Position numbers and translations under genes: made by a program | The notes under the pieces: generated by a model | The model's input: the letters and a program-made list of their open reading frames with translations, nothing else | Told to the model about the DNA's origin: nothing | Database searches by the model: none | In this document: piece by piece, positions 1 through 45,995 of the stretch | Position numbering within the stretch: the first letter of the stretch is position 1 | Layout: the number at the start of each line of letters is the position of its first letter | IMG/VR virus record: IMGVR_UViG_3300048995_000005 | Location: 1 to 45,995 of that record | From: a virus | Lineage: Duplodnaviria; Caudoviricetes | DNA length: 45,995 nt | Strand: one strand, 5' to 3'

Positions 1-134
1 TCGGCATTTTCGTTGCCGTGGTGGACGAGGACATCGACACCACCACCGAAGAGGGCAAGGCCCGCATGCGGGACAAGGCCAACGAGGCCTTCAAGGAACT
101 CATCAAGATCCGCAAGCGCACTCAGGACGGCCTT
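1..134. repeat. Terminal direct repeat, left copy (circular overlap inside the integrase gene)
   Basis: 1-134 matches 45862-45995 except position 8 (T vs C). Confidence 0.95.
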
Positions 135-1679
135 CAGGAGAAGGCCGAAGAGGGCGGCTGGGTCGGAGGCCTCCCGGCATACGGCCTTCAGATCAAGGAC
201 CAGGGCAAGAAGGGTCAGTCCGCACTGGAGGTCTGCCCCTTCGAGGCGATCGTCCTGGAGAAGGCCGCGGAGCTCATCGTGGACAAGGGCAAGAGCGCCG
301 ACGAGACGGCCGCGGCGCTGAACGCCCTGGGATACCGCACCCGTTCGGGCGCCCAGTGGACGGGCGGGAACGTGAAGGCCAAGTTCGCCAACACCGCCAT
401 GCACGGCGTGGTGATCTTCCGGAACACAGACCCGGCCGTCAATGCCGCCCGCGGCAAGCGGGCTACGCGCCTGGGCCATGACGGCCTGGCCGCCCACGGC
501 CAGACCGTGGAGATCCCGTGCCCGCTTCCCCTGCCCATCGAGCGCGTCAGGGCCGTCAGGAGGGCGCTGGAGCGCCGCGCACGCCCCAAGTCGGTCACGG
601 GGCAGGTCTACGCCCTCTCCACGCGCCTGACGGGCGCCTGTGGCGCCCACTACGTGGGCCAGTACCTCAAGGAGGAGGGCAAGCGGGCCTATCGCTGCTC
701 CGGCAGCAAGGCCGGAGGCTGCGAGGACTCGATCATCCTCGCCGATGAAGTCGAGGATGCCGTCTGGGAGTCCTTGGCCGACTATCTGTCGGACGAGGGC
801 ACGCTCCAGGAGCTGGCCCAGCGGTGGATCGGGGACAGCCCGGACCACCAAGAGCAGTACAGGGCCCGGGTGAAGGCTCTGGATGCCGAGATCGAGGAAC
901 TGACCAACGACTCGGCCCAGAAGCTCCTGGCCTTCACCACGGGCAACCAGAGCATCCCGCAGGCGGTGGTGAACGCGGCCCTGGCCGGGCTCACCAAGCA
1001 GGTCGAGGACAAGCAGAAGGAGCGCGGCTTGGCCCAGCACATGCTGGAGGACGCCGAGCGGGCCGCCACCCGCGCGTCGGACATCGCTTCCCTGATCGAG
1101 CTGGCCCGCAAGAACTTGAAGCTGATCAAGGGCGAACGCCGGGCGGACATCATCGAGTTCATGGGGATCAAAGCGGCCGTCATGGGGACTGTCCCCGTAC
1201 GGCAGGGCGGCAGGGCCTGTTCCATCGAGGCGTGGTTCGCCGGCCGGGAGCACGGTGTCCAGGAACTGACAGACGATCTCTGGGCTCAGGTGGCTCAGCA
1301 CGTCCCGCCGTACCAGGTGCGCAAGAACAGCCTGGACCCGCGGGCTGTTGTTGAGGCGACGCTGTTCAAGCTCCGTACCGGCACGGGCTGGGAGTCCCTG
1401 CCGGAGCAGTTCCCCTCCGGCCTGTCCGTACGGGCCCGGGTCAAGAACTGGATCGCCTCCGGCGCCTGGGCGCAGATGATGGAGCCCCTGTTCTCGCCGG
1501 AGGCGGAACGCTTCGAGCGGCCCCTCCTTCCGCCGCTCAAGGTGACGGGCGAGCTGGACCCGAACCTGACCCTCCTGGTGGAGGGACAGAACATTCACGA
1601 TCTTGTTTCCGGCAAGCACTCGCGACCATGCGTGTTCAGCTACGTCATGATCCCTAAAAATCACAGCCTGGCCGCCTGA
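1..1679 (+). CDS. int: Large serine recombinase/integrase, C-terminal part (joins 45504-45995; 678 aa in total)
   Basis: In frame with the YLRVSTEEQ N-terminus across the overlap. Recombinase domain (GGLPAYG..., ALNALGYRTRSGAQW), Zn ribbon (CGAHY..YRC..GC), coiled coil, then an extra DUF4096-like domain. Confidence 0.93.
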   Translation, partial: GIFVAVVDEDIDTTTEEGKARMRDKANEAFKELIKIRKRTQDGLQEKAEEGGWVGGLPAYGLQIKDQGKKGQSALEVCPFEAIVLEKAAELIVDKGKSADETAAALNALGYRTRSGAQWTGGNVKAKFANTAMHGVVIFRNTDPAVNAARGKRATRLGHDGLAAHGQTVEIPCPLPLPIERVRAVRRALERRARPKSVTGQVYALSTRLTGACGAHYVGQYLKEEGKRAYRCSGSKAGGCEDSIILADEVEDAVWESLADYLSDEGTLQELAQRWIGDSPDHQEQYRARVKALDAEIEELTNDSAQKLLAFTTGNQSIPQAVVNAALAGLTKQVEDKQKERGLAQHMLEDAERAATRASDIASLIELARKNLKLIKGERRADIIEFMGIKAAVMGTVPVRQGGRACSIEAWFAGREHGVQELTDDLWAQVAQHVPPYQVRKNSLDPRAVVEATLFKLRTGTGWESLPEQFPSGLSVRARVKNWIASGAWAQMMEPLFSPEAERFERPLLPPLKVTGELDPNLTLLVEGQNIHDLVSGKHSRPCVFSYVMIPKNHSLAA

Positions 1680-1694
1680 CCAGCAACAACACAC

Positions 1695-2281: not shown

Positions 2282-2418
2282 TCAAGCGTTGCTGGAAGGC
2301 CCTGAGGCCTCACCTGGCCCCTCTGGGCTGGAGCCTCGGGAGCGGGCTGGTCGGAGCCGGCATCGGGCTCCTGGTCGCGATGCTGTGGATCTGGAGCCAA
2401 GGTGCTGTACGACCCTGA
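2278..2418 (+). CDS. Small membrane protein
   Basis: GTGA coupling; TM segment GLVGAGIGLLVAMLWIW. Confidence 0.5.
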   Translation: MIKRCWKALRPHLAPLGWSLGSGLVGAGIGLLVAMLWIWSQGAVRP

Positions 2419-3145
2419 ACGGCGGTGGGCCCCCCGCGGCATCTGCCGCTGGGAGGACCGGGAGCTGTTCTTCGCTGACGGGGCGGTCGCGGGGCGCACA
2501 TCGCAGCGGGTTCAGAAGGCCTGGGACCAGGCCAAGGAGATCTGCTCCATGTGCCCCGTCCTGGCGGAGTGCCGGCGGGACACCCTTGGTGAGGACTTCG
2601 GCGTCTGGGGCGGTCTGGACCAGAACGAGCGCGCCGCCATACGGCGTGCCCTGCCGAAGGCGGCCAAGGGATGGCCGGTGGGCCGTCGCCTCGCCTGGGG
2701 CAAGGCCGTCCAGACCCTGCGGGACGGAAGCCTGCTCTGGCGGGACATCACGCTCATGACGGGCCTGCCCCACGGCCTGGCCGAAGAGCTGGCCACGCAG
2801 TGGCGCGTGCATCTCATCGAGACGGAGAACCAGCCCAAGGTCATCGACCTGCCCTTGCCGGGGGACCGCCCCCGCGGTCCCGAGTTCCCGACCAGGGCGG
2901 GCAGGCGTCACGCCTGGGTCCGCCACGGCGGGCGCATGTCGGACGCCATGTACCGCGGCGAGACGCCCACGGGGGCGTGGGTCTTCGTGACCGTCTACTC
3001 CGGTCACGGCCACGTCAACAAATGGGTCCCGCGCAGAGACGTGCAGGTCTACCACCCCCAGCCCGTGATCATCATGTCCAAGCGCAAGGAGGAGGCGGAT
3101 GAGCCCGAACCAGCTCCCGAGCCACACGTCACACAGTGCGCGTGA
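2402..3145 (+). CDS. whiB: WhiB-family Fe-S transcription factor with a long C-terminal extension
   Basis: C..EDRELFF...AKEICSMCPVLAEC...FGVWGG motif. Confidence 0.9.
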   Translation: MLYDPERRWAPRGICRWEDRELFFADGAVAGRTSQRVQKAWDQAKEICSMCPVLAECRRDTLGEDFGVWGGLDQNERAAIRRALPKAAKGWPVGRRLAWGKAVQTLRDGSLLWRDITLMTGLPHGLAEELATQWRVHLIETENQPKVIDLPLPGDRPRGPEFPTRAGRRHAWVRHGGRMSDAMYRGETPTGAWVFVTVYSGHGHVNKWVPRRDVQVYHPQPVIIMSKRKEEADEPEPAPEPHVTQCA

Positions 3146-41264: not shown

Positions 41265-41393
41265 ATGCGTCAACAGCGCGTGACCAAGCCCAAGCGAGTG
41301 GCAGACAAGCGCCGTTCTGCGCGGGAGGATGAACCGCAGGGAGAGAAGAAAGAGATCCGCAAGGATCTACGGCACTGGTTCGAGGAGAGGTGA
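41265..41393 (+). CDS. 42-aa basic peptide (MRQQRVTKPKRVADKRRSARE...)
   Basis: GGAG RBS; its stop overlaps the GTG of the next gene. Confidence 0.55.
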   Translation: MRQQRVTKPKRVADKRRSAREDEPQGEKKEIRKDLRHWFEER

Positions 41394-42196
41394 GCCATGT
41401 CATGCAGACTGCCGAGGAACTGATCAGGCAGTTAAGGGCCCCCGACCAGCGGGGGATGGGTCGTATCGAAGCGAGCGACAGCGGCCCCAGCAACATCAAC
41501 AGGCTGGCCGATCTTGACGCCACGGCCAGTCACATCCGCGTCTGGGACAGCACGGTCATCCCCGGCAACCTCCAGACGCCGGAGTACTCCGATGCGGTGA
41601 TCCGCGCAGCGCACCCGCGACTGCCGGCCATGGAGGTCCGGCGCCGCGTCATCCGCAAGGAGCAGCGGGCCAAGGCGTTCCTGCGGCGCACGTTTGACGA
41701 AGCCCTCACGCACGCATGGTTCGTCATCGGGGAACGCGCGGTCACTCAGTGCATGCATCTCGATGACGAAGGCAGCGTGCACACCAGTCAGCTCTGGCAT
41801 CTGTCGCGTCTCGCAGCGCACGGGAAGATCATCGTTCAGGTGCTGCCGGAGGACGTGGTCACGCCGGGCCTGGCCGATCAGTTCAGCCTGTACACCCTGG
41901 ACGCGGACCACCGTGTTGGTTACGTTGAGACGATCATGGGCTCGTGGTACTCCACGCGTCTTGAGGACGTGGCCAAGCTCCATTCCACCTTCACGGAGAT
42001 CGGGAGTCAGGCCATGTCCCCCTCAGCCACGCGGGCGTTCATCCGAGAGGTGCTTGGCACATGGCGATCCACAAAGAGGCAATCACCCGAACCCACCGAG
42101 GAGAACGGTTCCTCTTCTCCTCCTTCTCCCGGGCGGGAGACGAGTGCATCGGAGTCGCAGGAGCGACCGCGGGCGCCCTGGCGCTCGGAACCGTAG
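41390..42196 (+). CDS. DUF5753 (Scr1/WhiJ-type C-terminal domain) protein lacking the XRE HTH
   Basis: IPGNLQTPEY..VRRRV..R..FVIGE..QL.HL..IVQVLP..YVE..AMSP..TRAFI. Confidence 0.85.
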   Translation: MSHVMQTAEELIRQLRAPDQRGMGRIEASDSGPSNINRLADLDATASHIRVWDSTVIPGNLQTPEYSDAVIRAAHPRLPAMEVRRRVIRKEQRAKAFLRRTFDEALTHAWFVIGERAVTQCMHLDDEGSVHTSQLWHLSRLAAHGKIIVQVLPEDVVTPGLADQFSLYTLDADHRVGYVETIMGSWYSTRLEDVAKLHSTFTEIGSQAMSPSATRAFIREVLGTWRSTKRQSPEPTEENGSSSPPSPGRETSASESQERPRAPWRSEP

Positions 42197-42288
42197 CCAT
42201 ACTCGACTCCAAGGACCCTGACGGTCCCGTCCTGGAGGTCTCAGGAAGCGCCTGGAGCGCCTTCTACGCCTCCGTCAAGGCTCTCTGA
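42061..42288 (+). CDS. DUF397 (BldB/Scr2-like) protein
   Basis: SSFS..ECIGVA..VAILDSKDPDGPVL..AWSAF. Confidence 0.85.
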   Translation: MAIHKEAITRTHRGERFLFSSFSRAGDECIGVAGATAGALALGTVAILDSKDPDGPVLEVSGSAWSAFYASVKAL

Positions 42289-45248: not shown

Positions 45249-45431
45249 ATGCAGGACGGCAAGGCCATACCGGCTGACGGGGCCGGTGAGTGGCTGAGGA
45301 ACCACGTCGCGGGCGGCTCGGAGCCCGAGATCACCATCGAGTGGACAGAGCGCCACGAGCGGGACGATGCGGGATTCGCACGCTTTCTCGCCGCGCTGTT
45401 CACGCCCCTGCCTGACAGTCCCAAGCCATAG
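45249..45431 (+). CDS. Small protein upstream of int (possible directionality factor)
   Basis: RBS and position only. Confidence 0.55.
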   Translation: MQDGKAIPADGAGEWLRNHVAGGSEPEITIEWTERHERDDAGFARFLAALFTPLPDSPKP

Positions 45432-45503
45432 GATGCCCGCCACGTGGGTGACCCCGGCGACGCTGCGAACGTCCCGGGGTCTGGCCAGTCGGGAAGGACT
45501 GAC

Positions 45504-45995
45504 ATGACGCAGGCTCTCATGAGCAGCATCGCCGTAGCTCAGCGGACTATCGCGGGCCAGCTCCGCGCCGTTGACTACCTCCGGGTGAGCACCGAGGAGC
45601 AGACGCGCGGCTACGGCATCGCATATACCGGCAAGAAGACCGCGGCTCACATCGGCCGCAAGGGATGGGCGCACGTCGGCACCTTCAAGGATGAGGGCGA
45701 GTCCGGAACGCTCCCCTGGCAGGAGCGCCCCGACGCCAAGAGGCTGATGGCTCTCGCTCGGCAGGACCCCCGCCCGTTCGACCTGGTCACGGTCCACGAG
45801 ACCCGGGCGCTCGGGCGCGAAGAGCGCGCGTTCTACCGGTGGTACTGGGAGCTGGAAGACCTCGGCATCTTCGTTGCCGTGGTGGACGAGGACATCGACA
45901 CCACCACCGAAGAGGGCAAGGCCCGCATGCGGGACAAGGCCAACGAGGCCTTCAAGGAACTCATCAAGATCCGCAAGCGCACTCAGGACGGCCTT
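45504..45995 (+). CDS. int: Serine integrase N-terminal catalytic domain (continues at 135)
   Basis: MTQALMSS..RAVDYLRVSTEEQ..DEGESG..RP..FDLV..RALGR; GGAAGG RBS. Confidence 0.93.
   Translation, partial: MTQALMSSIAVAQRTIAGQLRAVDYLRVSTEEQTRGYGIAYTGKKTAAHIGRKGWAHVGTFKDEGESGTLPWQERPDAKRLMALARQDPRPFDLVTVHETRALGREERAFYRWYWELEDLGIFVAVVDEDIDTTTEEGKARMRDKANEAFKELIKIRKRTQDGL
45862..45995. repeat. Terminal direct repeat, right copy
   Basis: Matches 1-134 with one mismatch. Confidence 0.95.

Follow-up and report, generated by a model that had tools for sequence, protein, structure and literature searches.

An IS5-type domain predicted in the zinc-domain hairpin of a Streptomyces phage serine integrase with attP inside its own gene

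The integrase gene and its insert

The window (the whole stretch of viral DNA analysed, 45,995 nucleotides) has ends that overlap by 134 bp with one mismatch, 45862-45995 repeating 1-134, and from this overlap it is a circle of 45,861 bp. The integrase gene, int, starts with an ATG at 45504, runs across the end overlap and stops at 1679, and the resulting protein of 678 residues (Int) is identical to database protein P0001. The genes adjoining int are phage replication genes, and the features of the locus are collected in Table 1. Elsewhere in the window, a DUF5753 and DUF397 gene pair lies at 41390-42288, and a WhiB-family protein with a long C-terminal extension is encoded at 2402-3145. Scans of viral contigs and metagenomes with P0001 as the query returned no relative.

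Table 1. Features of the int locus (window coordinates; aa, residues of Int)
Feature	Position	Strand	Content	Basis
60-aa ORF, candidate recombination directionality factor (RDF)	45249..45431	+	one strand and an amphipathic helix	upstream look-alikes, predicted complex
Conserved int leader	45450..45503	+	GC hairpin, then second hairpin predicted over ribosome-binding site	
int, 5' part	45504..45995	+	start codon, catalytic resolvase domain, Ser29 at 45588-45590	
int, 3' part	1..1679	+	recombinase domain 243-446, zinc ribbon 627-776, coiled coil ~849-1112, final hairpin, tail	Pfam and model
First strand of final zinc-domain hairpin (beta13 equivalent)	1170..1181	+	aa 510-513	models, sister proteins
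118-aa insert in hairpin loop	1182..1535	+	aa 514-631: linker, short helix, DUF4096, linker	models, sister proteins
DUF4096, IS5-family transposase N-terminal helical domain	1266..1481	+	aa 542-613	Pfam, tblastn with host IS5 proteins
beta14 equivalent (last strand of solved integrases)	1536..1556	+	aa 632-638	structural alignments, predicted RDF interface
attP inside int	1599..1652		imperfect inverted repeat of 7 bp at +/-21 to 27; crossover at core GAC, 1624-1626	
Free-phage-only tail	1626..1679	+	aa 662-678: predicted strand 663-669, LAA C-terminus	models; absent from chromosomal forms

In the joined 678-aa protein, Pfam recognises Resolvase (22-173; PF00239, 73.9 bits, with the catalytic Ser29 invariant), Recombinase (201-268; PF07508), a zinc ribbon (329-378; PF13408) and DUF4096 (542-613), and both PF07508 and PF13408 exceed the cut-off. 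The catalytic, recombinase, zinc-ribbon and coiled-coil domains follow one another in the same order in the integrases of LI/A118, phiC31, Bxb1 and SPbeta (SprA), the coiled-coil helices being long in the Int model (403-490). The AlphaFold model of Int has a mean pLDDT of 78.8 and a pTM of 0.40 with 23 sequences in the alignment, a separate model of residues 501-678 is consistent with it (pTM 0.65), and Foldseek matches the Int model to Bxb1 with E 7e-20. The protein belongs to the large serine integrases, here that of a temperate Streptomyces phage, and does not qualify as an insertion sequence.

The DUF4096 match (PF13340) covers the full model, 1-76 of 76, with 67.8-68.6 bits and E ~1e-18 against a cut-off of 34.3. 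This confirms the first-pass annotation, which had recognised an in-frame peptide of this type in a serine integrase at 1263-1490 and had named a Pfam search of the joined protein as its check. The same annotation stated that no DDE domain follows, and this also holds. Int has no Pfam DDE domain, and in tblastn against the whole window the proteins of 20 host IS5 loci match at 1230-1511 only, over their first domain, their DDE parts matching nowhere in the window. With blastn, these 20 loci gave no IS-end match near the insert, the sole match being one of 43 bp with 77% identity. The GC3 of the DUF4096 region (0.86) is similar to that of the rest of int (0.82-0.93). Compared with the IS5 N-terminal domain, whose full Pfam model it matches, the domain in Int differs in being embedded in another fold, in a protein without DDE, and in having lost the helix-3 consensus. 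The candidate phrog_6657 was rejected as a separate family for the insert, being one more IS5 match, and the regulator encoded next to int in three of the cultured phages gave no match to the PHROG families that match the insert.

In the models, strand 510-513 is followed by the helical insert, strand 632-638, a helix and a further strand, 663-669. The structural alignments of Int to LI, SprA, Bxb1 and most phiC31 chains stop at model residues 637-645, which align to the ends of those chains, and two phiC31 chains align as far as residue 660. The zinc domain of LI integrase is described as completed by a final hairpin, beta13-beta14 (PMC3783163), and given where the alignments end, the 118-aa insert would lie in the loop of that hairpin, with strand 663-669 as an extra element. 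DUF4096 is thus predicted to interrupt the zinc domain ahead of its final strand, just after the penultimate one, and not to be appended to it, with 65 residues of Int lying C-terminal to DUF4096. This amends the earlier placement after the zinc ribbon and the coiled coil, in that the domain would not simply follow the fold.

The helices of the insert (544-551, 566-579 and 593-606) have pLDDT values of ~83-96 in the model of residues 501-678. The best result of a fold comparison with the insert model (Z 4.0, rmsd 3.3, 79 residues aligned) is at background level; Foldseek with the same model gave no match, a PDB sequence search found no chain resembling the insert, and the ESM Atlas returned nothing for it. 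The profile matches of Int to Bxb1, SprA and phiC31 end before the insert. In sister integrases, the hairpin loop is a short turn or a CxxC-type finger. The CxxC...CxxC finger, which we take to be DnaJ-like, occupies the loop in 24 sisters (P0132, P0136-P0138, P0140, P0146, P0149 and others), and many of these also have a hydrophobic strand at their end.

Distribution and history of the insert

PF13340 is listed for 34 of 44 homologues, and nine of the remaining ten were rescanned and all match it below the cut-off. The phage records matched are Streptomyces phages in 24 of 25 cases, and in the Arquatrovirinae phiHau3, Haizum, Hank144 and Sentinel the model scores 17.8-31.3 bits, under the cut-off. 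With an HMM built from the family, 43 of 49 actinomycete loci prove to carry the insert, against none of 31 other LSR loci (80 of 269 matches, from a scan of 19 of the 64 parts), and the six actinomycete loci that it missed are broken, cut or unparsed genes. A profile search found the insert in 75 of 147 further representatives. The survey of domain architectures that had been suggested as a check thus shows the insert as the mark of one actinomycete integrase clade, phiHau3-type phages included. Two integrases, P0193 and P0194, are named 'transposase' at NCBI, probably owing to the insert. Among the carriers are elements of prophage size and one element of 7.6 kb that presumably holds a RepSA-like gene and an XRE gene.

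For the core tree, 120 proteins of at least 500 aa were considered and the 109 with a full core were used, leaving the insert out; the tree was calculated with FastTree and midpoint-rooted, and its sequences had been chosen by a profile of the family itself. In this tree, 58 carriers and 4 non-carriers share one branch (SH-like 100), separate from 47 sisters (23 plain and 24 with the CxxC finger). Two of the non-carriers, the phage-type proteins P0067 and P0084, have a loop of ~17 residues with both ends intact, and by their sequences they represent two clean losses of the insert; the other two appear broken. Given the midpoint root, the history is likely to have been a single gain with a few losses. 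A tree of the domain only (64 integrase and 23 IS5 rows, 84 columns) needs two changes and its base is without resolution, so that, as a sequence comparison, it neither shows nor excludes a single origin and names no donor IS group.

The dN/dS values, obtained from 13 pairs of which four belong to one subfamily, are 0.29 for DUF4096, 0.23 for RD+ZD, 0.21 for the coiled coil and 0.10 for the catalytic domain, and by this estimate the insert is under purifying selection. Its mean identity to the host IS5 domains is 26%.

The attP site within int and the protein's C-terminal end

The arms of the attP inverted repeat are found at 1599-1605 and 1646-1652, around a centre at 1625-1626. As in LI/A118, phiC31, Bxb1 and SprA, attP is of ~54 bp with a short core and the target lies within a host gene; unlike in these systems, attP is inside int, and the protein has the 118-aa hairpin insert and an extra last strand. 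The consequence of this position can be followed in genome G006, in a close prophage whose int is 82% identical in DNA. Its match to the window ends at 1630, and the int side runs into positions 246-386 of the Xan_ur_permease profile. At the far end, on another contig, positions 1-244 of the permease profile are followed by the sequence that codes for the lost tail with its LAA end, and a second match covers window 1616-1684. Both junctions were found, the common core of attL and attR is GAC, and joining the two permease parts again gives an open frame of 488 aa. By these sequences, the G006 prophage is inserted in a xanthine/uracil permease gene, and its junctions, together with the presence of attP in the 3' end of int, mean that integration shortens Int from 678 to 662 aa; by homology this extends to the phage of the window.

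Two distant elements, one in G003 and one in G001, are arranged alike, their far arms coding for a hydrophobic strand and the ends LAG and AAV, and in G005 the far arm gives a strand and VAA, a weaker case in which the int frame is shifted ahead of the junction. Among the six elements searched for junctions, two yielded no far arm (that of L048 and L012/G002); the element of L048 is decayed, with an IS30-like piece and the P' arm absent. The contigs aligned to the window showed no recombined joint at the att core, which was covered only by X1, possibly the source itself.

Some further observations concern the att region and its relatives. The stretch 1653-1663 in the P' arm is AT-rich with an A-tract, identical in G006 and unusual in a genome of 67% GC, and it also codes for the tail. 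In the attB halves of G006 (L150:1478-1484 and L148 ~2904-2910), the sequences most like the outer repeat of attP are found at -32 and +29, and their distance from the core is larger than in attP and not 5 bp smaller, which may be chance; a zinc-domain motif shifted by 5 bp gave no clear match in attB. A GC hairpin at 1695-1718, absent from the terminator scan, directly follows the int stop and moves to the far prophage end on integration. The 41-kb element of G001 (L089-L091) has a second copy of the target-gene region beside its far junction. Different host genes lie at the int 3' end in the subfamilies L005/L016/L032/L048, L024/L028, L006, L011/L014, L040/L042 and L050, which we take to be, in this order, a DUF4191-like gene near lipA, an htpX-like gene, an MFS transporter, a dprA-like gene, an acyl-CoA synthetase and an ABC permease; this variety means many new attB sites. 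The distant non-actinomycete LSR frames L058, L063, L068 and L082 presumably end in tRNA-like read-through peptides, a hint that att-in-int arrangements exist at tRNA genes elsewhere.

Among the close relatives, 12 have the 17-residue tail and the chromosomal ones end 16 residues earlier, mostly at HSRR. All 12 free forms end in AA or VA (LAA in eight, and MAA, VAA, MVA and LVA), with varied preceding residues. An XXXAA end is given as the criterion for an ssrA-like tag (PMC8092301), and the end of the tail has, as a sequence, the pattern of such a degron, so that integration likely strips a protease tag. Across the family these ends are looser, being present in 16 of 58 proteins when free and integrated forms are mixed, and the tails of four cultured phages do not end in AA or VA. 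Free forms throughout the clade, and sisters as well, have a strand of alternating hydrophobic residues ahead of their end, and integrated forms of other subfamilies carry arbitrary host read-through tails.

A strict pattern finds look-alikes of the 60-aa ORF upstream of int in 20 of 52 loci, and the ORF gave no Pfam or PHROG family and no ESM Atlas match. Its predicted complex with Int 320-661 scores 0.74, against 0.00 for the best of three controls, a score that may reflect likeness to the LSR-RDF complexes already solved; 116 of 157 solved complexes attain the mark set for this score, as do 2 of 215 mismatched pairs, counts that are only approximate here because custom alignments were used. 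The runs share at least 69% of contacts, with a partner pLDDT of at least 58. Residues 27-40 of the ORF contact Int 632-643 and its helix contacts Int 388-395 and 484-495, no residue of the insert being among the confident contacts. The ORF product is thus predicted to bind truncated Int at the RDF site, with its strand on 632-643 and its helix on the base of the coiled coil. RDFs have been predicted to bind at the junction of DBD2 and the coiled coil, most of them adding a strand to the DBD2 sheet, and the extra C-terminal strands of SCCmec LSRs were proposed as able to block this site (PMC12286644). In Int, the sheet has its free edge at beta14, and we infer from this that tail strand 663-669 would lie on the same edge as the RDF strand; the edge predicted to be bound by the candidate RDF is probably the one taken by the tail strand.

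The hairpins of the int leader may possibly provide translational control of int. The pattern of the first is found in 21 of 54 family leaders, the fold of the leader is weak (z -1.85), and the leader has no Rfam match. Within 45429-45503, a TAnnAT hexamer overlaps the stop of the small ORF, ahead of the two hairpins.

Role of the insert and of the truncation

The N-terminal domains of IS5 transposases bind element ends. When 48 non-redundant integrase domains were compared with 15 host IS5 domains, the residues found common to both were W547, R567, K576-x-R578-T-G, W583, W603 and G607; the integrase inserts keep the core W547, W583, W603 and G607, with R567 in 100%, K576 in 97% and R578 in 81%. 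The IS-consensus residues W593, Y597, R599, F600, R584 and P587 are not kept in the integrase domains, and the putative recognition helix (helix 3) has lost its IS-conserved residues. The mean net charge is +1.3 for the integrase inserts and +3.3 for the IS5 domains, and -1 for Int of the window. The zinc domain of phiC31 is reported to cover att positions 17-27 (bioRxiv 10.1101/2025.05.02.651858), and attP of the window phage is of ordinary size, its outer inverted repeat ending at +/-27.

The first-pass annotation proposed a domesticated DNA-binding module that may alter att recognition, directionality or autoregulation. Domestication stands, on account of the restriction to one clade, the dN/dS and the low identity to host IS5 domains. 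The DNA-binding and regulatory part stays hypothetical: attP is of the usual size, the IS-conserved residues of helix 3 are lost, the predicted RDF interface includes no confident contact with the insert, and two phage-type relatives do cleanly without it. As a lead on directionality, the attP in the 3' end of int is better than the insert.

The reading tentatively preferred here is that the insert is a retained but dispensable module that would give additional, non-specific grip on DNA through backbone contacts of R567, K576 and R578. Its low charge, the lost IS consensus, the normal attP and the absence of the insert from P0067 and P0084 count against any binding of DNA. These losses, both clean and in phage-type proteins, are what would be expected of a folded passenger in a tolerant loop, kept since a misfolded insert would harm the enzyme and having no partner of its own. 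This possibility, which we hold to be somewhat doubtful, fits a loop that most of the 23 unlabelled sisters reduce to a short turn and that forms a CxxC finger in 24 others, retained residues that are chiefly core Trp and Gly, and a dN/dS above that of all other large regions. It does not sit well with the presence of the insert in 58 of 62 clade members, although the proteins are just 30-40% identical, with three near-invariant basic residues, or with the rarity of a clean deletion that is evidently possible.

The original idea of a sequence-specific reader, of a site outside core att or at the int promoter, appears improbable. It draws on a helical fold that weakly resembles Myb/SANT, domain IV of DnaA and sigma helices (Z up to 4.0, rmsd 3-4 A, 55-82 residues aligned), on a helix-3 sequence that varies by subfamily as the targets do, and on an A-tract that the window and G006 have in common in the P' arm, at +30 to +36. 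However, these structural matches are at background level, there is no second inverted repeat outside +/-27, the same A-tract codes for the tail, and the conserved int leader differs in stem sequence and resembles an RNA structure. A module for protein contact, aiding synapsis or tuning the movement of coiled coil and RDF, would agree with the low net charge of the insert and with its position next to the predicted RDF strand site at 632-643; it is nonetheless quite unlikely, the candidate RDF making no confident contact with residues 514-631, where residues not named remain uncertain.

Taken together with the preferred reading of the insert as additional DNA grip, the observations can be brought into one explanation, to which we lean with modest confidence. 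The N-terminal domain of an IS5 transposase was likely captured once, in an ancestor. In the infection form of 678 aa, the tail strand would occupy the RDF docking edge, leaving the enzyme blind to the RDF and capable of integration only, and the protease tag would make this form short-lived. With attP within the 3' end of int, integration would remove the last 17 residues, tag and strand together, and the prophage form of 662 aa would be stable, responsive to the RDF and able to excise. It is less probable that the truncation matters for stability only, by loss of the degron, or not at all, and that the tail strand is no competitor of the RDF. That all 12 close free forms end in AA or VA would be expected on that account, as would the arbitrary host read-through tails of integrated forms in other subfamilies, and some free tails end otherwise, as in the four cultured phages. 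Against it, the hydrophobic strand is present near the end of free forms of the clade and of sisters even when these lack an AA end.

Parts of this arrangement are already known, namely att within int, removal of a tag by integration and a small RDF encoded upstream, while blocking strands are a model-based suggestion. In the tyrosine integrase of Mx8 and the serine integrases of streptococcal rumA ICEs, integration is likewise described as replacing the integrase's C-terminal end (PMC4701971, PMC6070905); here only 17 residues are lost, with a predicted strand and an AA end, and the available parts of those accounts name no degron, RDF-site mechanism or IS5 insert. In BPs-type mycobacteriophages, where attP is also described within a gene and integration removes an ssrA-like AA tag, the protein edited is the repressor and the integrase is of the tyrosine type (PMC8092301), whereas here a serine integrase edits itself. 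The extra C-terminal strands of SCCmec Ccr are modelled over the RDF site (PMC12286644), and in the present family the strand is removable by recombination itself. The 60-aa ORF can be compared with the 64-aa RDF gene reported directly upstream of the LSR Skr of the B. subtilis skin element (PMC6957869). The Samy integrase was set aside as a case of the same type, being described with 510 aa and an attP upstream (PMC12924846). In listings of the openly accessible literature, no description of an IS5 insert or of a strand-plus-tag switch was found, and members of the family may appear in the supplements to PMC12286644 and to large LSR surveys.

Serine integrases are core tools of genome engineering and their directionality is an active question. 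The family offers the same enzyme with and without a C-terminal strand, made by its own reaction, together with a candidate RDF and a mapped attB, and it bears on the question, raised in 2025, of whether extra C-terminal strands block the RDF site (PMC12286644). The chromosomal copies in databases are the truncated form, and a clone made from one of them would lack the tail as well as one half of attP. The hairpin loop tolerates a folded domain of 118 aa and is a possible site for engineered DNA-binding fusions, and the insert is an example of a transposase domain domesticated by a site-specific recombinase. More broadly, and with rather less assurance than the explanation given above, it is conceivable that this widespread family of actinomycete integrases sets its own directionality by gene editing, the 60-aa RDF supplying the missing strand after integration and thereby licensing excision, with the hairpin loop serving as a slot for modules such as the IS5 domain or the CxxC finger.
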